DNA from: a virus
DNA: 64,000 bases
Virus record (IMG/VR): IMGVR_UViG_3300017598_000441
Location: 9,680 to 73,679 of that record
Direction: 5' to 3' (one strand)
Positions 14,048 through 57,791 of the stretch are shown here, piece by piece. Numbering within the stretch: the stretch's first letter is position 1; each line of letters begins with the position of its first letter. The position numbers and the translations under genes are program-made. The notes beneath the pieces were generated by a model that worked only from the letters and a program-made list of their open reading frames with translations, did not search any database and was not told where the DNA came from.

Positions 14048-15718
14048 ATGGTAGAGCAAAAAAATACATGGGTAAAGTATGTTGAAAGAACATACCAACA
14101 AATAAAAGATAGTGTTTTGGTACGCCTACAAAGTCTTACCCCAGAAATAACAGACCATACAGAAAGTAATATTTTTGTTAAGATGTTAGGTATATGGGCA
14201 GGTATTGCAGAGATGTTGGGATATTATATAGACAATGTTGCTAGAGAGAGTTATATCTCTACTTGCAGATTATACTGGTCTGCAGTAAAAATAGCACAAC
14301 AGTTCGACTATAGGATATTCTCAAAATCCCCCGCTTCTGCAGATGTTACGTTTACCATAAATACAGTAAGCCTAACAGATATTACTATTCCACAAAATAC
14401 AGAATTAAAATCTAAGGGGGATTTAAAATTCCTAACAGTAGAGCCTGCAACTATAAATGTAGGTCAGTTAGAAGCAACAGTATCTGCACTACAGTTCGAT
14501 AAAGTTATTGGGGCAACCTTAGGTATATCCAACGGTTCAGATGCCCAAGTATTTGTAGTAAATGACCAAGACATTGCAGATAAAAGTGCAGTAGTAAAGA
14601 TACTAGGTAGTAACTGGGCTCATGTAGACACTTTTGCATTTAGCCTCGCAGACGATTTGCATTTTAGGATGTCCGTTAATATAGACAAACAGACAATAAT
14701 AGAATTTGGAGATGGCATAAACGGAGCTATACCTCAAAACGGAGCAACAATAACTTTGGATTACCTAACCTGTGCAGGTGCAGCAGGAAATATTGCAGCC
14801 GACCAAATTGCAGAAATAGTAGATACTATTACCCTACCCCCTAGTACAGAAATAGAAGTTACAAATAATTTAGCATCTTCTGGAGGGGTTGATATTGAGA
14901 GTTTAGATGACTTGAAACGTAGAATACCCTTATCCATAAGAACTGTAAGGGTGGCAGTAACTGAGAAAAACTTCTTAGATATTGCGAACCAAGCACCCCA
15001 AGTACAGCAGTCTGCATTGTCTTATGATTGTGGTAAGAATGTAAAAATATATGTAGTACCTATAGGTGGAGGCATTGCCAGTGAGGTATTATGTGATTCT
15101 GTAGTATTGTGGTTTGAGGATAAGAAATTATTTTCTACAAAGGTGTTTGTATTTCCTGCAGGTATGTTAGAAGTATCCCTAAACCTAAACGTACAGGCTA
15201 GGTATAACTATCAAAACATAGATGTTCAGACTAGGGTGGTAGAAAACCTAGAGGAGAGGTTTTCAATGGTATCACAGGGAATCGGAGGAAAATTAAAATT
15301 ATCCGATATATACGAAGTTGTAGAAAATACAGATGGGGTAGAATATAGTAATGTTAGACAAATAAAGTTAATACCTTATGCAAGGTCTATAGATAACTTT
15401 ATTCAACTAGATTGGACTAAAACGCTAAAAGATACAGGCAATGTATCACTGTTTTGGAAAATAACAATGATAAACCCTACTCAGTATCAATTATTCAAAG
15501 GGAGTACTTTCCAAGGGACTTATGACGTAGGTACTTTAGCAACTTTTGTGGAGATAGATTTTGTAGTAAATCTAGGGGCGTATAATACTGGGGATGAGTG
15601 GGAATTTGTAACTTACCCAAGTTTCCAAAGCAATAACGGAATAATAGAGTTGGAAGAGTTTTCCGTACCTGTTATTCTACAGAATAACACGGTAATAAAT
15701 GTAACTGGAGGTATATAG
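14048..15718 (+). CDS. Baseplate J / T4 gp6-like wedge protein
   Basis: FGDGING.IP and GG.D.ESLDDLK.R.P......AVT..NF motifs. Confidence 0.92.
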   Translation: MVEQKNTWVKYVERTYQQIKDSVLVRLQSLTPEITDHTESNIFVKMLGIWAGIAEMLGYYIDNVARESYISTCRLYWSAVKIAQQFDYRIFSKSPASADVTFTINTVSLTDITIPQNTELKSKGDLKFLTVEPATINVGQLEATVSALQFDKVIGATLGISNGSDAQVFVVNDQDIADKSAVVKILGSNWAHVDTFAFSLADDLHFRMSVNIDKQTIIEFGDGINGAIPQNGATITLDYLTCAGAAGNIAADQIAEIVDTITLPPSTEIEVTNNLASSGGVDIESLDDLKRRIPLSIRTVRVAVTEKNFLDIANQAPQVQQSALSYDCGKNVKIYVVPIGGGIASEVLCDSVVLWFEDKKLFSTKVFVFPAGMLEVSLNLNVQARYNYQNIDVQTRVVENLEERFSMVSQGIGGKLKLSDIYEVVENTDGVEYSNVRQIKLIPYARSIDNFIQLDWTKTLKDTGNVSLFWKITMINPTQYQLFKGSTFQGTYDVGTLATFVEIDFVVNLGAYNTGDEWEFVTYPSFQSNNGIIELEEFSVPVILQNNTVINVTGGI

Positions 15719-48828: not shown

Positions 48829-48857
48829 AAACCCTAATCAAATGATTAGGGTTTTTT
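48829..48857 (+). terminator. Intrinsic terminator
   Basis: AAACCCTAATCA-AA-TGATTAGGGTTTTTT. Confidence 0.88.
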
Positions 48858-48879: not shown

Positions 48880-49884
48880 ATGAAAATTATAGCAGGACCC
48901 TGTAGTGCAGAATCAGAATCACAGATAAAAGAAATAGCAGACTCACTAAACGCTTTTGGAGTAAAGACTTTTAGGGCAGGGGTATGGAAACCTAGGACTA
49001 GACCTAATAATTTTGAAGGTTTCGGGGAGAAGGCAATACCTTGGTTAGCGTACCCTAGAAATTTAGGTATGGAGGTTACTGTAGAGGTAGCAAATAAACA
49101 TCAAGTATCTATAGTCTTAGAAAATTTGCATATAATAAACTCAGTATGGATAGGAGCTAGAACGACAGCTAACCCATTTGCAGTTCAAGAAATAGCAGAA
49201 GCACTGGAGGGAAGTAATATTCCTGTAATGGTGAAGAACCCTCTAAACCCAGATATACAGTCTTGGGTAGGGGCTATAGAAAGATTACAAAGTAGAGGCA
49301 TCAAAAATATATCCGCAGTACATAGAGGATTTACAGATGATTTGGAGACCAGATACAGAAATAGTCCTAGATGGGATTTCATCTGTAAATTTAGAGAGGC
49401 ATTGCCAGATATTCCTATAGTATGCGACCCTAGCCATATAGCAGGAAGTAGGTTATACATAGATGAAGTGTGTAGAACAGCAGCTCAGCTAGGGGTGGAT
49501 ACTTTTATGATAGAATCTCACAGCAACCCCGAAAATGCTATGACGGATGCGGCCCAACAAGTAACCCCAGAACAACTACATTTAATTGTATCTAATCTGA
49601 AACTGGAGACAGAAGAGCATCTTATAAGCCTAAGCAATAGTAGGAATCAAATAGATGCTATTGATAGGAGCATAGTAAGACTTCTTGAAGAAAGATTCAA
49701 ACAGGTTGCAAATATCAAAGGGGTCAAAAAGGCAAAAGACATGGAGGTACGCCAACCCCAGAGGTGGGAGGATGTACTCCGAAATATCAAAGAAGAATCT
49801 ATACATTGTACTAATATATCTGAATCTGAGGTAGTAGAAATCTTTAACACGCTGCATAATATATCTATAGCAAACCAGATATAA
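48880..49884 (+). CDS. Bifunctional DAHP synthase (type I-beta) / chorismate mutase (AroQ)
   Basis: IAGPCSAES, KPRT, WIGAR, HRGF, DPSH, IESH; C-terminal R.QID.ID..I..LL.ER...K...Q..RW...S...Q. Confidence 0.95.
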   Translation: MKIIAGPCSAESESQIKEIADSLNAFGVKTFRAGVWKPRTRPNNFEGFGEKAIPWLAYPRNLGMEVTVEVANKHQVSIVLENLHIINSVWIGARTTANPFAVQEIAEALEGSNIPVMVKNPLNPDIQSWVGAIERLQSRGIKNISAVHRGFTDDLETRYRNSPRWDFICKFREALPDIPIVCDPSHIAGSRLYIDEVCRTAAQLGVDTFMIESHSNPENAMTDAAQQVTPEQLHLIVSNLKLETEEHLISLSNSRNQIDAIDRSIVRLLEERFKQVANIKGVKKAKDMEVRQPQRWEDVLRNIKEESIHCTNISESEVVEIFNTLHNISIANQI

Positions 49885-50050
49885 ATTTTGGTATATTAAA
49901 AATTTTCCGTATCTTTACGGAGTAAAAGGGACAAAAATAAACCAAAATTAATTAATCTTTTATGAAATTAATTTTGGTTTATAACAAAACTTTTCGTACC
50001 TTTACGAAGTAAAAGGGAAAACAAATAGTACAAACCACAAATTTAGAATC
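49884..50050 (+). promoter_or_regulatory. Two tandem copies of the phage promoter cassette
   Basis: TTTTGGT...CCGTATCTTTACGGAGTAAAAGGG then TTTTGGT...TCGTACCTTTACGAAGTAAAAGGG. Confidence 0.8.
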
Positions 50051-50248
50051 ATGTTAGAATTACTAGACAAAAAGTACGAGGGAGCAATTACATCAGAACC
50101 GACTACTCTTAGGGTAGATGGCAAAGCTACAAAACTGAAATTATTCATAGATACTTTGGAGAGTAGTGGAGTATCTGAAAAAACAGCAATAAACAGGTTC
50201 AGTAAATTCGTTAGAGACAACGATATGATTGAACTAATTAATAATTAA
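50051..50248 (+). CDS. Hypothetical protein
   Basis: Follows the promoter cassette. Confidence 0.6.
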   Translation: MLELLDKKYEGAITSEPTTLRVDGKATKLKLFIDTLESSGVSEKTAINRFSKFVRDNDMIELINN

Positions 50249-50284
50249 CACACACAAACAACACACACAAACAAAACACACACA
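50247..50284 (+). repeat. Triplicated AACACACACAA leader motif
   Basis: AACACACACAAAC AACACACACAAAC AA AACACACACA directly before ATG. Confidence 0.85.
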
Positions 50285-50722
50285 ATGAGAAAAAAAATTG
50301 TATTACTAGACTTGAACAGCACGCTTGCAGTAAAATCTAGCTATGACTGGAGAACATTTACTTACGATGTATCCGCAGATGAGTACTCAAAGGAGTTAAT
50401 AGAAAAACTCAAATCGGAGGGGCACGAAGTATGGATTCTAACTGCCAGAACTACAGAGTATGAAAAAGATACTTTGGAGAAATTGATGAAAGACACAGGT
50501 TATGCTCCAGATAAATGCTTCTTTAAAGGACATGGAGGGAAACAAGAAAGAAAACTTCCTGCACACATTTACAAAAGATTATTTGTAGAGGAGCTTCTGA
50601 AATCTGGGGAGTATAAAACATCTGATTTCATTGCTGTAGAAAGTAATTTTAAAACGCATAAACAATACAGAGAACTGGGACTCACGGAGATTTATAAGAG
50701 AGACCAGTATCTGAAACTGTAA
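50285..50722 (+). CDS. HAD-superfamily phosphatase-like protein (PNK-phosphatase type)
   Basis: LLDLNSTL, ILTAR, conserved K, AVESN. Confidence 0.75.
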   Translation: MRKKIVLLDLNSTLAVKSSYDWRTFTYDVSADEYSKELIEKLKSEGHEVWILTARTTEYEKDTLEKLMKDTGYAPDKCFFKGHGGKQERKLPAHIYKRLFVEELLKSGEYKTSDFIAVESNFKTHKQYRELGLTEIYKRDQYLKL

Positions 50723-50724
50723 AA

Positions 50725-51405
50725 ATGGAAAAAGATACCCACACAGAAGAAGGTTTTTCCTTCAATTCAATAGTAGAGTTTGATAGTCATATATCAAACT
50801 CTATTCCTAGTTATGATAGTTTGTTAAACTTTGTAGTTCAACTATCCGACTACTTCATGGAGGAGGGAGTCAATAATTTTGATATAGGTTGTAGCACAGG
50901 TAAATTAGTCAAGAGGCTAGGAGAAAGACATCCAAGCTCTAAATTTACTGGCATAGATAATGAGGTGAATTTCAAAGATGAGATGGATTCAGCCTCAACC
51001 AATACCAATTTTATATTCAAAGATATATTCAAAGTGGATAATTTCAAGAACTCCAACTTTAATACTTTAATATTCACCTTGCAGTTTTTACCTCCCCACA
51101 AAAGATTAGAATTAGTGAAAAAACTCTACGATGGGTTAAACTTAGGGGGAGCCTTAGTAGTTGCAGAAAAGACACTATCAAAAAGCTCCAAGTTCCAAGA
51201 GATTCTAACCTTTTTATATTACGACTATAAGAGGGCGTATTTTTCAGATAAGTCTATTTTAGAGAAAGAGAAATCTCTTAGAGTCATAATGAAGCCTATG
51301 ACATTCCAAGATTTAGAAAACTTAATGATAGCAGCAGGCTTTTCAGAAGTAGAGATTTTCTGGAAAAGTTATAATTTCATAGGTATAATTGCAATAAAGA
51401 ATTAA
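50725..51405 (+). CDS. cmoA: CmoA-like SAM-binding protein (putative carboxy-SAM synthase)
   Basis: F.F...FD.HI..SIP.Y, DIGCSTG, IDN, FTLQFL, GGALVVAEK, DYKR, AGF..VE.FW..YNF...IA.K, colinear with CmoA. Confidence 0.8.
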   Translation: MEKDTHTEEGFSFNSIVEFDSHISNSIPSYDSLLNFVVQLSDYFMEEGVNNFDIGCSTGKLVKRLGERHPSSKFTGIDNEVNFKDEMDSASTNTNFIFKDIFKVDNFKNSNFNTLIFTLQFLPPHKRLELVKKLYDGLNLGGALVVAEKTLSKSSKFQEILTFLYYDYKRAYFSDKSILEKEKSLRVIMKPMTFQDLENLMIAAGFSEVEIFWKSYNFIGIIAIKN

Positions 51406-51425
51406 TAATCCATAAAAGAAGAAAG

Positions 51426-51992
51426 ATGGCAGTAGTAAAAAAAATGGTAAAGATATTCAAGAAGGACATTCAAGAATATTCAAAGAATGAGAAGATTCAC
51501 ACTAACGAGAATCTTGCATTAATCCGAAAAAGTATCTCAGACATAGGGTATGTAACCCCTATTGTAATAGATGAAAATAATGTAATCCTAGCAGGGCACG
51601 GAAGATTCGCAGTTATGTTAGAGAGTAAGACTCTCAAAATAGAGTGTATGCAAATAACAGGTCTTACAGAACTACAAAAAAAGAAATTTAGACTATACGA
51701 CAACCAGACAGCTAGGACGGGTCACTTCGATAATGATTTATTACTAGACACCGTGGGAGGTATCCTAGCAGAAGATTCGGAGTTTAATATCGGAATACTA
51801 GGTATTGAAGGTTTAGCGGAAGCCTTTTCTGATGAGATTATAAGCCTAGATTTAGGTACTGCCAAATTTGAAAAAGTAGAAAATGAAAGTCCTTTGAAAG
51901 TACTGGTAGTAGTTACTGACCGAGTAGAGGAAATAAAAGAACTACTAAGAAAGGAGAAAGGTACAGAGTTTTCACAAGGAATAAAAGCATAA
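51426..51992 (+). CDS. ParB N-terminal domain protein
   Basis: N.KIH, SI...GY..PIVIDEN.VILAGHGR, RL.DN. Confidence 0.9.
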   Translation: MAVVKKMVKIFKKDIQEYSKNEKIHTNENLALIRKSISDIGYVTPIVIDENNVILAGHGRFAVMLESKTLKIECMQITGLTELQKKKFRLYDNQTARTGHFDNDLLLDTVGGILAEDSEFNIGILGIEGLAEAFSDEIISLDLGTAKFEKVENESPLKVLVVVTDRVEEIKELLRKEKGTEFSQGIKA

Positions 51993-51996
51993 TACC

Positions 51997-52488
51997 ATGA
52001 GCAGAGAAAAGGAAATTACACTTAAACAGCTCAAATCTAAACTAGCTCTGGTAAAAATACAGCCAGATAAACTACTGGAATTAGATACAGAGTTCATAGA
52101 GTTGGAGCAGGAATTATCTTCAAATTCTAAAAAACCTTACTTATCAAGCCTAAGTGCTATAAATACTGTGGTAAGAAAATACAAAAAACTTGTAGATTTA
52201 ATAGTGGCAGATAAACTCAAAGGAATCAGTTTAAGAAACATAAAATTGATAATGAGTACAGAGGGACTACGAAACCTAGTAGTAGTCTTTAAACCCCAAG
52301 ATTTCAACCTAAAGTTTTTCGGAGGGGACTACCGAGCAAAACTTACTCCAGAGTACTTCTTTAGACTGTTGGAGGATAAAGTATCTGGAAAAGTATTTAT
52401 TTTTAAACATTCAGAAACTTCGGTAGCTAAAACACAGACTGCAAACATTACAAAAACACAATACTATGTACTCTTTAGTAAAGATTAA
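51997..52488 (+). CDS. Hypothetical protein
   Basis: ORF within the ParB/methyltransferase cluster. Confidence 0.65.
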   Translation: MSREKEITLKQLKSKLALVKIQPDKLLELDTEFIELEQELSSNSKKPYLSSLSAINTVVRKYKKLVDLIVADKLKGISLRNIKLIMSTEGLRNLVVVFKPQDFNLKFFGGDYRAKLTPEYFFRLLEDKVSGKVFIFKHSETSVAKTQTANITKTQYYVLFSKD

Positions 52489-53950
52489 ATTAAAAAGCTT
52501 AATAGGGGATGAGGACAACCCTAGACTTCTAGCAGACAAGACCAAAGAACTTCTAATATTATCACTAAAGAAGTTCGGATTATTGTCTCCTATTTATTTG
52601 GACCAAAGAGGAGTTTTACTATCTGGACACCAGAGAACCAAAGTTATGAAAGAACTGGGAGTAGAATCCGTCTATTGTAATGTTCTTAAAATGGACTTAG
52701 AAGATAAGAGTAAATTTAACAGCCTCAACTTTGCATTCAATAAAGAGCTACAGGAGATTAATGGTTTTGAGAACTCATCCGAAGAACATATAAAAAGTAA
52801 GAGGGCAGAGTTATTAGAAATGCTTACAGGCATGGAAGACTTAGAAGACATAACACAACCCCTAAGAGAAACCTCTGTAGTACCAGTTTCAGATATTACA
52901 CCAACAGAAACAGACATACCCGAAAGGTTAGTATCCAACTCTAGAATGTTATTTGCTATGGCAGGAGTAGTAATCCCCTTAATATGTGATGAGAATTACA
53001 ATATAGTAAACGGAAACGCTAGATACATATTCTACAAAAAGAAGTTTGCTAAGATACCCTGCATAGTAGCAAAAGGAATCACTCCAGATATATTTAAGTA
53101 CATAACTGCTAACTATTCTCTAAAAGGTAGAGAGGATAATATCCGAGTAGAGGCTAGAAGACATTTCATAAGACCTCACCTATCAAAACACCATGAAGAG
53201 ATAGCTATGGGTAAAGCATCTGGAAACTTTCCACTAGCATTTAGATTAAACTATCAAAACAAGCATTATAAGCATACTTTAGACTTTGGTTCTGGTAATG
53301 GTAAACAAACAGCATTTCAAAGGGCATTAGGGCAGAATATAACGATGTTTGAGCCATTTTCTACTAAGAAGCTAGGTGAGTTCTCTTTATTGGAGACATA
53401 TACCAATTTAAGCACGTTTCTGGATGAATTAGAAGCAAACGATATATTTGATATGGTAAGGGCGAATGCAGTATTGAATAGCGTACCTTTCGAGGAAGAT
53501 TTAAAGAAAGTGGTAACACTCCTAAAGTTTCTGGCTTGCGGAAGTATTAAACTCGCAGTTACAGGAAGAAACGTAAGAAAGTTAGTTAAGTGGGAAGGTA
53601 GAGGTACAGGCACTAAGATTAAGGATATGGGAAAATCCGTTATTATCAGTATTTCACAAAAAACCAAGGTTCAGAAATTCCACACCATAGAAGAGATGGT
53701 AGAAATGTTCTCAGATGAAGGAACAGGAACGGAGGCATTAATAGTAGATGGAAGGTCTGGAGATATAGCAGTAGAGATTAGATACCCTAAATACACAATA
53801 GGTAAAAAGGAATTACTAGAGGCTGTGGCGTTTGAGTTCGGTATGAGTTACGAGAATAGGGTGTTTAAAGACATCAAGAAAAGGGCATTGCAGGTATTCG
53901 AGGAGAGATATGACAGACTACTGTTAGCAGGCGTAGTACAAACCAACTAG
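52466..53950 (+). CDS. Two ParB-like domains fused to a class I SAM-dependent methyltransferase-like domain
   Basis: NPR...SL.KFG...PI...LLSGHQR; second IPLI.D....VNGNAR; LDFGSGNG, FEPF, AVLNSVPF. Confidence 0.8.
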   Translation: MYSLVKIKLKSLIGDEDNPRLLADKTKELLILSLKKFGLLSPIYLDQRGVLLSGHQRTKVMKELGVESVYCNVLKMDLEDKSKFNSLNFAFNKELQEINGFENSSEEHIKSKRAELLEMLTGMEDLEDITQPLRETSVVPVSDITPTETDIPERLVSNSRMLFAMAGVVIPLICDENYNIVNGNARYIFYKKKFAKIPCIVAKGITPDIFKYITANYSLKGREDNIRVEARRHFIRPHLSKHHEEIAMGKASGNFPLAFRLNYQNKHYKHTLDFGSGNGKQTAFQRALGQNITMFEPFSTKKLGEFSLLETYTNLSTFLDELEANDIFDMVRANAVLNSVPFEEDLKKVVTLLKFLACGSIKLAVTGRNVRKLVKWEGRGTGTKIKDMGKSVIISISQKTKVQKFHTIEEMVEMFSDEGTGTEALIVDGRSGDIAVEIRYPKYTIGKKELLEAVAFEFGMSYENRVFKDIKKRALQVFEERYDRLLLAGVVQTN

Positions 53951-53990: not shown

Positions 53991-54527
53991 ATGAAAAAGA
54001 CAGACAAATCTGATTTGACAATCTGGACTAAAGCAGGTACAAAACGGAAAAGAAAAAGGAGACCAAATTCAAAACCAAACTCAGAAGCTACCAAAAAAGC
54101 CAAGCAACGTAAAGCCGCTAAGACTGCCAAGGAAGCAAGTATAAAAACCAAAGCTGCTAAAGCTGCAATGTTAAAGGCTTTGACTGCGAACTTAGGTATT
54201 GTTACTAATGCGTGCCAACAGGCAAACCTATCAAGAACGCAACATTACCAGTGGCTCAAAGATGACAAAGCTTACAGTCAAGCCGTGGAGGATATAGGAG
54301 AACAAGCTATTGACTTTGTGGAAGGTTCTTTATTCAAACAGATTAAAAACCAACAGACTGCCCCTACTATATTTTATCTAAAAACCAAAGCAAAACACCG
54401 TGGGTATATTGAAACGCAAGTAAATATAAATCACGAAGGGGATTCTCTACATGAATTAACAGAAGAGGAACTTAAACAAATTGCAGAATATGGATATGTA
54501 AAAGATAAAGTAAAAGAAGTAGATTAA
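53991..54527 (+). CDS. Terminase small subunit
   Basis: LGIVT.AC....SR..HY.W...D, AIDFVE..L, IFYLKTK.K.RGY; precedes TerL. Confidence 0.85.
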   Translation: MKKTDKSDLTIWTKAGTKRKRKRRPNSKPNSEATKKAKQRKAAKTAKEASIKTKAAKAAMLKALTANLGIVTNACQQANLSRTQHYQWLKDDKAYSQAVEDIGEQAIDFVEGSLFKQIKNQQTAPTIFYLKTKAKHRGYIETQVNINHEGDSLHELTEEELKQIAEYGYVKDKVKEVD

Positions 54528-56185
54528 TGAGGCCGACAGTAAGCAGAAATGATGCACTTATAGAACTAGCCAGACGTAAGCAATTAGAGTACTGGAGACT
54601 TAACCCCTTAAAGTGGTTAGAGGAGAGACTGGGAGAGAATCCTAGAGACTTTAAGTGGTCAGAAATGAAAGGTTTTGAGAAACACCAATGGGATGGGGAT
54701 AAAGATTGTTTAGCCTCAGTCTGGGAACTCTTTGGAGATGCCTTATCCGCATCAGCTAATGGAGAAATACCAGACTGGAGATTTGCAGCAATAGAAAGTG
54801 CAACAGGTACAGGAAAAACCTATTTTCTGGCTAGGTTAGTACTTTGGTTCTTAGATACCAACAGGAACAGTTTAGTGGTTACTTCCGCACCCTCAGAAAC
54901 ACAGTTAAAGATGGGATTGTGGTCAGAGATTGCAAATCTATTCCCTAAGATAAAGAAATCTAGACCCTACTCTGAAAAATGGAAGCTAAGGGTAGCTATG
55001 GATATTAAACAGAAAGATTTGGCAGATAGTTGGCACGCTATAGGTTTTGTTACAGGTACTAATGCTAATGAAGAATCTTCAAACAGAGCCAGAGGTTTCC
55101 ACAGAAAAAATATGTTAATCATATTAGAGGAGTGCACAGGTATTCCCCCATCTATTTTGACAGCATTTCAAAACACTTGTACTGCAAATGCCAATTTTAT
55201 TCTAGGAGTGGGAAACCCTAACAATGAGTTCGATACATTACATAGATTCGCAACCCAAGACAATGTTAGAAACTTTAGGCTATCGGCTTTTGACCATCCT
55301 AATATTGTTTTAAAGAAAGAGCATTTCTCTGGGGCAGTTACCGAAACATCTTTAAAGGATAGGTCCTCTACTTATGTAGAAGGTTCCGCATTCTGGAATG
55401 CTATGGTTAGAGGTATATGCCCAACTACCAGTGTAGATAGTTTGGTAAATCTAAAATGGATGGAAGCCGTACTAAATATAGATGTAGAACCAGAATTTGA
55501 AACGGAGACAGATGCTGTAGGGGTGGATGTAGCCAACTCCACAAATGGGGATAAAGGTGCAACAGCTTGGGGACATGGCAGCAAACTTACTGATATGTTT
55601 GAATTTGTTTGTCCGAACGCCACACACTTAGGCTATAATTTGATACTAGATGATGTATCCCTTGCAGACAATGGATACCTAAACTACGGATTACCTACTA
55701 TAGGGGTTGATTATGATATTCCACAAGAGTACATAGGGATAGATGCTGTAGGAGTAGGAGTAGCTACGGTTAATGCACTACTGGACGAGGACATTACTCC
55801 AGAATCTCTACAGGGTGGACAATGGAAAGAGGTTATACCTACAGTAGAAAAAGTCCTAGACGGAAATACTGTAGAAGTCCCAATGTATAAGTTTCCATCT
55901 CTTAGGTCTCAAATGTACTGGGAGTTTAGGGAGGATATAAGACTTAAAAAGCTATCTATATGTATTGCCAACCCAGAGATGCGTAATCAGTTAATCAAAG
56001 AAGCAACAATACCTAAATACGATGTTAGTCGAGGTTATATTACCGTGGAGAGCAAAGAATCTATCCGAAAAAGATTAGGGAAGTCTCCAAACGTTCTTGA
56101 TTGTGCTGTTTATTGGAACTGGATTAGAAAAGGGTATAGAGTAAACCCTCAAACATTCTACGTGAATCTATCTGGAGGGAGTTAA
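54527..56185 (+). CDS. Terminase large subunit
   Basis: SATGTGKT, IILEE, GNPN, GVDVA, ESKE.IRKRLG.SP...D. Confidence 0.92.
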   Translation: MRPTVSRNDALIELARRKQLEYWRLNPLKWLEERLGENPRDFKWSEMKGFEKHQWDGDKDCLASVWELFGDALSASANGEIPDWRFAAIESATGTGKTYFLARLVLWFLDTNRNSLVVTSAPSETQLKMGLWSEIANLFPKIKKSRPYSEKWKLRVAMDIKQKDLADSWHAIGFVTGTNANEESSNRARGFHRKNMLIILEECTGIPPSILTAFQNTCTANANFILGVGNPNNEFDTLHRFATQDNVRNFRLSAFDHPNIVLKKEHFSGAVTETSLKDRSSTYVEGSAFWNAMVRGICPTTSVDSLVNLKWMEAVLNIDVEPEFETETDAVGVDVANSTNGDKGATAWGHGSKLTDMFEFVCPNATHLGYNLILDDVSLADNGYLNYGLPTIGVDYDIPQEYIGIDAVGVGVATVNALLDEDITPESLQGGQWKEVIPTVEKVLDGNTVEVPMYKFPSLRSQMYWEFREDIRLKKLSICIANPEMRNQLIKEATIPKYDVSRGYITVESKESIRKRLGKSPNVLDCAVYWNWIRKGYRVNPQTFYVNLSGGS

Positions 56186-57697: not shown

Positions 57698-57791
57698 TTC
57701 ATTTCATTGCTAAATAATTTTGGTAGGTAACAAAATTTTCCGTATCTTTACAGAGTAAAAGAGATAAAAACAAACCACAAATTCAAGACCT
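57698..57791 (+). promoter_or_regulatory. Promoter and leader cassette copy
   Basis: Near-identical to copies at 59054, 61046, 61899 and 63916. Confidence 0.85.

Follow-up and report, generated by a model that had tools for sequence, protein, structure and literature searches.

Why does a phage encode a shikimate-pathway enzyme close to a CmoA-like protein and a ParB-fused methyltransferase? The locus lies within a 64,000-nucleotide stretch (the window) of IMGVR_UViG_3300017598_000441, a CheckV-complete record of 73.7 kb; the host of this 74-kb phage is probably a member of the Bacteroidota. On the + strand, the gene order is DAHP synthase-chorismate mutase (DAHPS-CM, or the aro gene), HAD, CmoA-like, ParB, a 163-aa open reading frame, a ParB-ParB-methyltransferase fusion, TerS, and TerL; the genes named in the original prediction were all where it had placed them. 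We consider it fairly probable that this is a phage nucleic-acid modification module that runs on carboxy-SAM (Cx-SAM), with its own prephenate supply and ParB-fused transfer to DNA. The phage DNA is probably marked with a base so far undescribed, because Cx-SAM and the prephenate supply are paired with an uncharacterised ParB-fused transferase and not with the one known DNA carboxymethyltransferase. The original interpretation stood as to the type of CmoA, the missing acceptor enzymes, and the links of CmoA to the fusion and to DAHPS-CM. We found no paper that links aro gene supply to CmoA, or a ParB fusion to carboxymethyl transfer.

A CmoA-like protein without the known acceptor enzymes

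The CmoA-like protein (50725..51405, + strand; 226 aa) has TIGR00740 as its best match (2.5e-37). Its score of 128.9 bits is below the curated cut-off of 193.3 bits, which counts against it; SpCmoA from Synechococcus phage S-B43, which was demonstrated to make Cx-SAM (PMC12783734), scores 115.6 bits. The two phage proteins are 40% identical (8e-58), and the 50725 protein also matches the CmoA structures of E. coli and H. influenzae (1e-26 to 8e-28). The original prediction had raised doubts about Arg199, and the protein does read EKEKSLR and IFTLQF, as it had noted. But among 28 phage CmoA-like proteins, position 199 (E. coli numbering) covaries with the residue four further on: E. coli-type CmoA has R...E, while the SpCmoA type, including the 50725 protein, has E...R. 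Since the validated S-B43 enzyme has the same charge swap, this doubt about its identity is resolved. We infer that the 50725 protein is a carboxy-SAM synthase of the validated phage type; given this close homology, it would convert SAM and prephenate to Cx-SAM.

The S-B43 system (CmoA-CmoX-CmoY) forms 5-carboxymethylcytosine and its glycine amide (Yang et al., Nat Commun 2025, PMC12783734). This is the cyanophage report that the original prediction had mentioned, and the architecture here does differ, as it claimed. Both phages have a CmoA of the same subtype, with the E/R swap, and ParB-domain proteins nearby, and neither has CmoB; the presumed purpose of both systems is to mark DNA genome-wide with a carboxymethyl handle. 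Unlike S-B43, our phage has no homologue of the C5-methyltransferase (no SPPC motif and no equivalent of R350) and no AsnB-type ligase. Instead, its candidate transferase has an unrelated class I fold with two ParB domains and no conserved cysteine, and its module includes a PNKP-like HAD and a prephenate-supplying enzyme. The S-B43 study found no candidates for N6-A or N4-C carboxymethyltransferases, and it left the availability of prephenate open (PMC12783734).

None of PF00145, PF08003, PF01555, PF00733, or PF01136 occurs in the 73.7-kb record, so the whole genome lacks a C5-methyltransferase (CmoX), CmoB, an AsnB-type ligase, an N6/N4 methyltransferase, and a U32 enzyme. (As a positive control, S-B43 matches PF00145 at 4.9e-54.) There are no tRNA genes in the window. 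The original prediction had seen no cmoB or tRNA genes, and for CmoB this extends to the entire genome.

The candidate ParB-fused transferase and its neighbours

The proposed Cx-SAM-dependent transferase (52466..53950, + strand; 494 aa) matches phrog_5475 across its full length (1.1e-40). At the N-terminus are tandem ParB cores, two segments that both match the stand-alone ParB. The C-terminal part contains a normal SAM-binding motif I with an acidic post-I residue, and structural comparison of its model (pLDDT 79) with class I SAM methyltransferases gives Z of 9–11; the predicted LDFGSGNG and AVLNSVPF motifs are present in the protein. The catalytic domain is closest to generic class I methyltransferases that act on small molecules or RNA, and its nearest structural neighbours include METTL6, Trm9, Hen1, cap N7 methyltransferases, and small-molecule enzymes. 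The top structural matches include no DNA methyltransferase, and the (D/N/S)PP(Y/F/W) motif of DNA amino-methyltransferases is absent from the protein. Across the fusion family (138 clusters at E ≤ 1e-30), the near-invariant residues are G275, G277, E296-P297, N338-S339-x-P341-F342, and D345-R346. Because a conserved cysteine and C5-methyltransferase motifs are both lacking in the family, a base nitrogen or oxygen would be a likelier acceptor than pyrimidine C5.

In E. coli, CmoA makes Cx-SAM from SAM and prephenate, and the class I-fold CmoB uses Cx-SAM at O5 of ho5U. The phage module would be similar, in that Cx-SAM from CmoA would be consumed by a class I-fold carboxymethyltransferase that alkylates a heteroatom. 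Unlike E. coli, the phage genome lacks CmoB (PF08003) and a U32 enzyme (TrhP-type), the window lacks tRNA genes, and the transferase carries ParB domains and adjoins terminase genes.

The pairing of the fusion with CmoA is near-constant in other phages, as the original prediction would have it. Among 21 IMG/VR loci with homologues of the fusion, 18 have CmoA within a few kb. Two more records have CmoA elsewhere, which brings the count to 20 of 21, and the remaining record is a 4.9-kb fragment. In Gordonia phage Evaa, Aeromonas phage HJ05, and Pseudomonas phage SM1, the gene adjoining the fusion best matches CmoA (1e-26 to 1e-35). Of the 21 records, just one has a C5-methyltransferase, and these three isolates all lack it.

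A stand-alone ParB N-domain protein (51426..51992, + strand; 188 aa; phrog_620, 9.7e-31), which nearly all related loci encode upstream of the fusion, is probably a partner or activator of the fusion enzyme. Complex prediction for this ParB with the fusion's ParB region gave 0.47, versus 0.01 for the best control, which is weak support: among solved complexes, 58 of 80 reached the mark, as did 2 of 110 mismatched pairs, but at 0.60 or under, just 7 of the 80 solved ones did, along with both mismatches. Contact agreement between runs was at least 79% and the partner's pLDDT was at least 75. The pass may also stem from likeness to solved ParB dimers.

A phage ParB activates a DNA-modifying dioxygenase on double-stranded DNA (PMC13229309), and ParB-Methyltransf_23 fusions, which are enriched in phages, are predicted DNA methyltransferases (PMC12704722). 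In these systems (the former being 5mYOX-ParB phage thymine dioxygenases), as in our proposed module, a DNA-modifying enzyme that acts after replication is accompanied by a ParB N-domain protein or fused with one. Unlike them, our locus has two fused ParB cores as well as a free ParB, and no link to CmoA or Cx-SAM was drawn there.

The HAD (50285..50722, + strand) has a capless HAD fold of the polynucleotide 3'-phosphatase (T4 Pnkp) type; its DLNST and ESN motifs are atypical. The best structural matches for its AF2 model (pLDDT 94) are 4xrp_A and 5uj0_B (Z 14.5, rmsd 2.6, 129–130 residues aligned). D9, N11, T13, T53-A-R55, K97, and E119-S-N121 are invariant in 10 homologues, and an asparagine replaces the phosphatase's general-acid aspartate. 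The HAD gene adjoins CmoA in many lineages. This conserved protein is a member of the module, though our proposed mechanism gives it no role.

Just downstream of the fusion are the small terminase subunit (53991-54527, + strand; phrog_4044, 2.8e-07) and the large subunit (54527-56185, + strand; phrog_2, 8.8e-26). This neighbourhood (53991..56185) is the module's context in all lineages, including the related loci and the isolates. The two fused ParB domains with the free ParB, the PNKP-type HAD, and the constant adjacency to terminase all point to DNA as the target. We propose that the fusion, probably aided by the free ParB, takes Cx-SAM and would transfer the carboxymethyl group to replicated phage DNA ahead of packaging.

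A proposed prephenate supply

The DAHPS-CM gene (48880..49884, + strand) encodes a 334-aa protein with a type I-beta DAHP synthase domain (PF00793 DAHP_synth_1, 5.7e-31) and a C-terminal AroQ chorismate mutase domain (PF01817 CM_2, 4.2e-17). The original prediction described its motifs as intact. This is so for the DAHPS domain, whose PCS, KPRT, DPSH, IE.H, and TD motifs line up with those sites of P. furiosus DAH7PS that bind metal and PEP, but the mutase domain has Q and W at the positions of D48 and E52 of E. coli CM. Cellular Bacteroidota DAHPS-CM share this ILQxxRW variant. The protein scores under the NCBIfam equivalog cut-offs.

Cellular DAH7PS with a C-terminal CM domain are bifunctional, and prephenate feedback-inhibits their DAHPS domain (PMC8408635, PMC12202928). 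The enzymes from Prevotella nigrescens and Porphyromonas gingivalis have the same domain order as the phage protein, which is 45–50% identical to Bacteroidota bifunctional enzymes and retains all of the DAHPS metal and PEP ligands. Unlike these cellular relatives, it is phage-encoded, its N-terminus is about 19–25 residues shorter, and its gene lies beside a Cx-SAM module and not among aromatic amino acid genes. DAHPS-CM would add capacity at the first shikimate step and at the step that turns chorismate into prephenate, so that prephenate would not limit bulk synthesis of Cx-SAM. If the phage copy retains feedback inhibition, then the drain of prephenate via CmoA would raise the flux.

As a reverse test, we considered 21 viral records whose DAHPS(-CM) shares 33% identity or more with the 48880 protein. 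CmoA is encoded within about 0–7 kb in 13 of these and a U32 enzyme is present in 6; the 2 records with neither are both fragments. By comparison, CmoA is found in 70 of 50,697 phage records (~0.14%). In the 13 records with CmoA, the partner is the ParB fusion or CmoX, and nine are ParB-fusion modules. Some phage DAHPS-CM genes lie within CmoA-DAHPS-CM-(CmoY)-CmoX operons of the published type. The predicted co-occurrence of DAHPS-CM, CmoA-like, and ParB-methyltransferase genes is thus seen, and it backs the predicted role in prephenate supply: given this linkage, the aro gene's most likely role is to provide CmoA with prephenate. In Aeromonas phage HJ05, the cluster that holds the module also includes a DAHPS, of another subtype. 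Yet of about 25 genomes that bear the module, only 3 encode a DAHPS. The module therefore works in its absence, and DAHPS is an accessory that turns up occasionally, outside the core.

The aro gene is a separate transcription unit. A terminator-like hairpin (48829..48854, + strand; 11-bp stem and T tail) lies just 5' of it and would separate it from the upstream unit. The distance from the end of the aro gene to the start of the CmoA-like gene is 841 nt, close to the predicted 0.85 kb. In between, at 49908..50018 (+ strand), are two copies (49908-49931 and 49995-50018) of a 24-nt cassette, CGTAnCTTTACGnAGTAAAAGGGA; the window's + strand carries 7 copies in total (100 shuffles gave an expectation of 0). 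The original prediction placed two promoters here; the two copies are there, ahead of the HAD-CmoA operon, as candidate phage promoters.

Other explanations and minor features

We also considered that the fusion might be an ordinary SAM-dependent DNA or RNA methyltransferase, with CmoA either draining host SAM (as a counter-defence) or feeding a host CmoB for tRNA cmo5U, and with the aro gene supporting turnover. The fusion's normal motif I and acidic post-I residue fit this idea, as do the ParB-Methyltransf_23 fusions; a CmoB-family match in Bacteroides (in the control panel) would allow the tRNA route, and a SAM drain was raised as a possibility in PMC12783734. However, independent action of the two proteins does not readily account for the near-obligate pairing with CmoA, seen in 20 of 21 records and in three isolates. 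As for a SAM drain, phages deplete SAM with SAM lyases, which require no co-substrate. And the pairing also occurs in a Gordonia phage, while cmo5U is described as a Gram-negative tRNA modification (PMC12783734). So we think this explanation is unlikely. Similarly improbable is that the fusion uses Cx-SAM but acts on RNA, a nucleotide, or a protein (such as terminase or the ParB partner). Its structural neighbours do include RNA and small-molecule enzymes, the HAD resembles the phosphatase domain of the RNA-repair enzyme Pnkp, and domains of the ParB fold, which bind NTPs, are also found in kinases (SerK and Srx, for example; PMC12704722). But ParB N-domains on phage methyltransferases are generally regarded as DNA-directed, the position next to terS and terL is typical for DNA-modifying genes, the window has no tRNA genes, and in the sole validated case of a phage using Cx-SAM, the acceptor is DNA (PMC12783734).

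Even less probable, in our view, is that DAHPS-CM serves aromatic amino acid supply in general, as an auxiliary metabolic gene, and lies near CmoA by coincidence. Its separate transcription unit and its absence from most module-bearing phages would be consistent with this. But 19 of the 21 close DAHPS(-CM) records have CmoA or a U32 enzyme, usually within 0–7 kb, despite the low base rate of CmoA; the gene is found inside CmoA-CmoX operons; and two distinct DAHPS subtypes were recruited. Distant phage DAHPS/KDO8PS-like genes without the CM domain show no linkage to CmoA or U32 enzymes.

Returning to the locus that we propose to be a Cx-SAM module, two of its open reading frames are unassigned. 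A 65-aa ORF (50051..50248, + strand; from the ORF list) has no match in Pfam and may fall outside the system. The 163-aa protein (51997..52488, + strand) has no match in Pfam or PHROG and a poor Atlas model (pLDDT 0.41); it is kept only within the close clade, with weak homologues at the same position in related loci L010, L011, L013, and L014.

The CmoA-like protein and its gene neighborhood

The window covers bases 9680-73679 of an IMG/VR virus record of 73,679 bp, which is complete according to CheckV; the G+C content is 36%. The phage encodes a tail sheath, a baseplate, and its own DNA polymerase, primase, helicases, and SbcC. The locus that we studied lies on the + strand and begins with a fused DAHP synthase and chorismate mutase (DAHPS-CM, or the aro gene; 48880-49884; DAHP_synth_1, 5.7e-31; CM_2, 4.2e-17). 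The aro gene is followed by a HAD-like protein (50285-50722, a match to the HAD fold), a CmoA-like protein (50725-51405; best match TIGR00740, 2.5e-37), a free ParB-like protein (51426-51992; phrog_620, 9.7e-31), a 163-amino-acid protein that belongs to no family (51997-52488), and a ParB-ParB-methyltransferase protein that we will call the fusion (52466-53950), whose entire length is matched by phrog_5475 (1.1e-40), a family without an assigned function. The genes for the small and large subunits of terminase start at 53991 and 54527, also on the + strand, and an NAD-dependent ligase and a topoisomerase-like gene lie on the 5' side of the locus. The motifs that the original prediction cited for these proteins are present in the sequence. 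Pfam has no matches to the fusion (none at E ≤ 0.01), the 163-amino-acid protein, or either terminase subunit. The ESM Atlas model of the 163-amino-acid protein is poor and yields no usable match, and megablast of the whole locus against phage records found no match.

The CmoA-like protein scores 128.9 bits against TIGR00740, which is under the curated equivalog cutoff of 193.3. But SpCmoA from Synechococcus phage S-B43, which makes carboxy-SAM from SAM and prephenate (PMC12783734), scores just 115.6 bits. Since this experimentally validated enzyme falls short too, the cutoff leaves out true phage members of the family. The CmoA-like protein is 40% identical to SpCmoA (8e-58, residues 11-225), and it aligns lengthwise with the structures of CmoA from E. 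coli and H. influenzae (1e-26 to 8e-28). In E. coli CmoA, Arg199 forms a salt bridge with the carboxylate of carboxy-SAM (PMC3663124). The CmoA-like protein has glutamate at this position, with an arginine four residues on. This substitution and the altered NFTLQF motif were the two caveats of the original prediction, and both are common to the active SpCmoA, whose sequence reads LFTLQF and EKEKELR. Among 28 aligned CmoA-like proteins from phages, the Arg199 position and position +4 covary: E. coli-like members have K-R-x-S-L-E, while SpCmoA-like members, including the protein from the window, have K-E-x-x-L-R. The exchange looks like a charge swap over one helical turn. Overall, there is good support for the CmoA-like protein making carboxy-SAM, as judged from sequence comparisons. 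We also noticed a subgroup of fusion-linked CmoA-like proteins (in L016, L017, L026, and L027) with neither arginine of the swap pair (K-E-L-S-L-A/G-G) and with LMF replacing LQF; these may make another SAM derivative.

The fusion as a candidate transferase

The fusion (494 amino acids) has two ParB N-domain cores, a conserved arginine-rich linker, and a C-terminal class I methyltransferase fold. Each of the two cores aligns to the free ParB (1e-07 and 3e-07). Although Pfam's ParB family (PF02195) gives nothing at Pfam's threshold, phrog_620 matches in two stretches (5.6e-23), and GHQR, a G-x-x-R phosphate-loop motif, is invariant in the family. At E ≤ 1e-30, a profile search for this family yields 138 clusters, nearly all with around 500 amino acids. 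In 92 members, which are about 22% identical to the fusion from the window, conservation falls on the GHQR loop of ParB, G275 and G277 (motif I), E296-P297, N338-S339-x-P341-F342, D345-R346, K401, and Q403. The features of a class I SAM methyltransferase, D273-x-G275-x-G277 and the acidic post-I residue E296, are near-invariant or invariant, and homologues of the fusion carry PF13489. The AF2 model of residues 225-494 (pLDDT 79) resembles generic small-molecule and RNA methyltransferases (Foldseek TM 0.4-0.5; VIA-align Z 9-11), for example 3sm3, 3d2l, and 3thr (Z 10.8-11.1, rmsd 3.3-3.7, 170-179 residues aligned; for 3sm3, VIA-align gives Z 11.1 and rmsd 3.5 over 170 residues). Neither Foldseek nor VIA-align places a DNA methyltransferase among the top matches, which by itself excludes nothing.

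No cysteine is conserved among the 92 members of the fusion family, which argues against C5 chemistry of the kind carried out by CmoX, the cytosine C5 transferase of phage S-B43. Nor does the fusion look like a DNA amino-methyltransferase (N6-A or N4-C): the motif after beta4 is NSVPF, not (D/N/S)PP(Y/F/W), and PF01555 does not match.

We also searched the whole 73.7-kb genome for other enzymes that might use carboxy-SAM or tailor its product. PF00145, the CmoX type with its SPPC motif and R350 equivalent, has no match (as a control, S-B43 matches at 4.9e-54). CmoB (PF08003, Methyltransf_9) is missing genome-wide and the window contains no tRNA gene; the original prediction had seen neither in the window. 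AsnB-type ligases (PF00733), U32 proteins (PF01136), and N6/N4 methyltransferases (PF01555) are missing from the genome as well. Because none of these five families is present, the fusion is the only candidate consumer of carboxy-SAM that we found. DAHPS-CM genes pair with U32 enzymes too, so we considered that a base might be hydroxylated and then O-carboxymethylated, following the logic of cmo5U on DNA. We rejected this idea, as the U32-bearing records lack the ParB fusion and CmoA, and the window's genome lacks U32.

To find other fusions in IMG/VR, we used an alignment-based scan, which was needed because the fusion as a single-protein locus query found just one distant ParB match. The scan gave 21 loci. 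A CmoA-like gene lies within a few kb of the fusion at 18 of these (by tblastn), a free ParB is upstream in nearly all, and a HAD gene is beside CmoA in about half. For two of the other three loci, a CmoA-like domain is found at a different place in the record, and the third is a 4.9-kb fragment. Just one of the 21 records contains PF00145, distant from the module (as we call this cluster of CmoA, fusion, and ParB genes, with or without HAD). The same gene set is found in three groups of cultured phages, represented by Gordonia phage Evaa, Aeromonas phage HJ05, and Pseudomonas phage SM1 and its relatives. In Evaa, gp1 is ParB, gp2 is the fusion, gp4 is a phosphatase, and gp5 is followed by the terminase (gp6). 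The neighboring "methyltransferase" genes of Evaa, HJ05, and SM1 have CmoA as their best match (1e-26 to 1e-35), and none of the three phages has PF00145. In two records (G019:C1:88802-89329 and G020:C1:1775-2302, from loci L028 and L029), the CmoA-like domain is part of a 545-amino-acid open reading frame and seems to be fused to a further domain; it is also far from the ParB-methyltransferase gene.

Proposed prephenate supply and DNA modification

The aro protein has the domains of a type I-beta DAHP synthase with a C-terminal chorismate mutase (107.9 and 62.6 bits, versus Pfam cutoffs of 25.5 and 27). Compared to DAH7PS from P. furiosus (1ZCO), the metal ligands (Cys, His, Glu, and Asp) and the KPRT site for PEP are kept. 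Against the NCBIfam equivalogs it scores 143-168 bits, which does not reach the cutoffs of 279-335. The match to type I-beta DAHPS is far better than to KDO8PS. The closest relatives of the aro protein are cellular DAHPS-CM enzymes from Bacteroidota (45-50% identity), so the host is probably a member of Bacteroidota; the G+C content is not in conflict with this. The N-terminus of the phage enzyme is about 19-25 residues shorter than in its cellular relatives. The chorismate mutase domain has Gln and Trp at the positions of D48 and E52 of the E. coli enzyme, and it has the motif ILQxxRW in common with the relatives from Bacteroidota. Enzymes with this architecture from Bacteroidota were shown to be bifunctional, with prephenate acting as a feedback inhibitor of DAHPS (PMC8408635).

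In the reverse direction, a scan for relatives of DAHPS in phages gave 46 loci, with 21 records at least 33% identical to the window's gene. As a check, the original prediction had named the co-occurrence of DAHPS-CM, CmoA-like, and ParB-methyltransferase genes across phage genomes. CmoA is found in 13 of these 21 records, generally 0-7 kb away, with nine ParB-fusion modules among the partners. The other partners are operons of the published type, CmoA-DAHPS-CM-(CmoY-like)-CmoX. Another 6 of the 21 records encode a member of the U32 family, to which the other known modifier of nucleic acids that depends on prephenate, TrhP, belongs. The two records with neither CmoA nor U32 are 18% and 42% complete. 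For the distant DAHPS- or KDO8PS-like phage genes that lack the chorismate mutase domain, no link to CmoA or U32 was seen.

Among genomes with the module, DAHPS is occasional: it is found in the window's genome, L013, and HJ05. In HJ05, gp6 (L003:6257-7420) is a DAHP synthase of 387 amino acids without a chorismate mutase domain. It is clustered with the ParB fusion and CmoA, directly after the large terminase (which has no family match and is presumed from its position and its homology to SM1 gp55). Since tblastn with the window's enzyme missed gp6, it belongs to a different subtype of DAHPS, which suggests that HJ05 recruited DAHPS independently.

Several variants of these loci are worth describing. 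Compact CmoA-DAHPS-CM-(CmoY-like)-CmoX operons are found at L051:2635-6046, L048, and L047, where CmoX is 42-45% identical to SpCmoX; the gene for prephenate supply thus sits inside the published type of system. In L040, L049, and L050 (records G026, G035, and G036), two CmoA paralogues flank DAHPS-CM, one on each side, and the ParB fusion and HAD are also present. In L013, the closest DAHPS-bearing relative, DAHPS-CM (14226-15182) stops before the last helix of chorismate mutase and lacks its Ser and Gln positions, so this domain may be degenerate.

Tentatively, and with slightly more doubt than confidence, we propose that the fusion belongs to a second class of natural DNA carboxymethyltransferases, unrelated to the first (CmoX). 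It would mark a ring or exocyclic nitrogen or an oxygen of a base and so form a DNA base that is not yet described. Some phages would pay for this with their own DAHPS-CM, raising prephenate in the host, and the ParB/Srx-type domains, presumably NTP-binding, and the atypical PNKP-like HAD protein might process the carboxylate further. Parts of this proposal are on firmer ground: there is good support for the aro gene supplying prephenate to CmoA, and moderate support for the fusion consuming carboxy-SAM and acting on phage DNA before packaging.

We also considered three less likely alternatives. The fusion might carry out plain methylation, with CmoA serving an unrelated role; to be weighed against this is the steady company of CmoA. 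Another alternative is that the acceptor is something other than DNA; at the 21 fusion loci, terminase genes adjoin wherever they are recognizable. Finally, the aro gene might be near CmoA by coincidence. Its patchy presence among the modules would fit with that; as a base rate to set beside the reverse scan, 70 of 50,697 phage records contain a CmoA match.

The closest known system to the one we propose is CmoA-CmoX-CmoY of phage S-B43. The window's genome differs in having no CmoX-type C5-methyltransferase, with the ParB fusion as the candidate transferase instead. The first report of carboxymethylation as a natural DNA modification dates from late 2025 and concerns one type of enzyme, CmoX, acting on cytosine C5. 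That study noted ParB proteins near CmoX, found no other class of transferase and no candidates for N6-A or N4-C carboxymethyltransferases, and did not settle where the prephenate comes from, asking for study of its availability; the words chorismate and DAHP do not occur in the text of the paper (PMC12783734). Fusions of ParB with Methyltransf_23 have been listed as enriched in phages, but no tie to CmoA was drawn (PMC12704722). We found no paper that links ParB fusions to CmoA or phage chorismate mutase to DNA modification, and none on N-carboxymethylated DNA bases that occur naturally in phages, or on DNA modification in Samunavirus or PaMx31. Both points, on transferases and on prephenate, are touched by the locus and its relatives: CmoA, in the absence of CmoX, goes together with a large uncharacterized family of transferases fused to ParB, and DAHPS-CM recurs in phages with either type of transferase. 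If the proposed chemistry is correct, it would add a new modified base and a new enzyme scaffold for site-directed functionalization of DNA, and it would be a case of a phage redirecting central aromatic metabolism toward a modification of DNA. Since the module is present in three groups of cultured phages (Gordonia phage Evaa, Pseudomonas Samunavirus, and Aeromonas phage HJ05), these ideas can be put to a direct test.

Accessory proteins and candidate regulatory elements

For the model of the HAD protein (50285-50722; pLDDT 94), the nearest structures are those of Pnkp1 from C. thermocellum and Pnkp from T4, in both cases the capless 3'-phosphatase domain (Z 14.5, rmsd 2.6, 129-130 residues aligned); they score about 2 Z units above the remaining matches. 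However, it lacks the motifs of HAD phosphatases, which are DxDxT, with the second Asp as general acid, and an acidic pair in motif IV. Instead, motif I reads D-L-N-x-T, where Asn takes the place of the general acid, and motif IV reads E-S-N; neither varies among 10 homologues from distant phage lineages. So the protein may not be a standard phosphatase. We rejected a KdsC-like partnership with a KDO8P-type synthase, given that HAD is kept in modules without any DAHPS and has a Pnkp-type fold, and that the aro protein fits DAHPS far better than KDO8PS. We also rejected a role like that of haloacetate dehalogenase, acting on the carboxymethyl group: this is a mere chemical analogy, and L-2-haloacid dehalogenase (Z 10.2) is well below Pnkp.

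Complex prediction for the free ParB (51426-51992) with the ParB region of the fusion gave a score of 0.47, versus 0.01 for the best control, with at least 79% agreement of contacts between runs and a pLDDT of at least 75 for the partner. Among 80 solved complexes, 58 attain a score of 0.47, as do 2 among 110 mismatches; 7 of the 80 solved complexes and both of these mismatches do so at 0.60 or less. This weakly supports pairing of the two proteins, and likeness to solved ParB dimers may explain the score.

A terminator-like hairpin lies ahead of the aro gene. A 24-nt cassette with an internal hairpin, CGTAnCTTTACGnAGTAAAAGGGA, has seven copies in the window, all on the + strand, where none would be expected by chance. 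Two copies (49908-49931 and 49995-50018) are between the aro gene and the HAD-CmoA operon, and the other five (at 57741, 59097, 61089, 61942, and 63958) are in the 57.7-64 kb region. The cassette is a candidate promoter or RNA element, specific to the phage, that may serve a single temporal class of genes; this class would include the HAD-CmoA operon. Immediately 5' of the HAD start codon (ATG), there are three tandem repeats of the AACACACA type (50245-50287).
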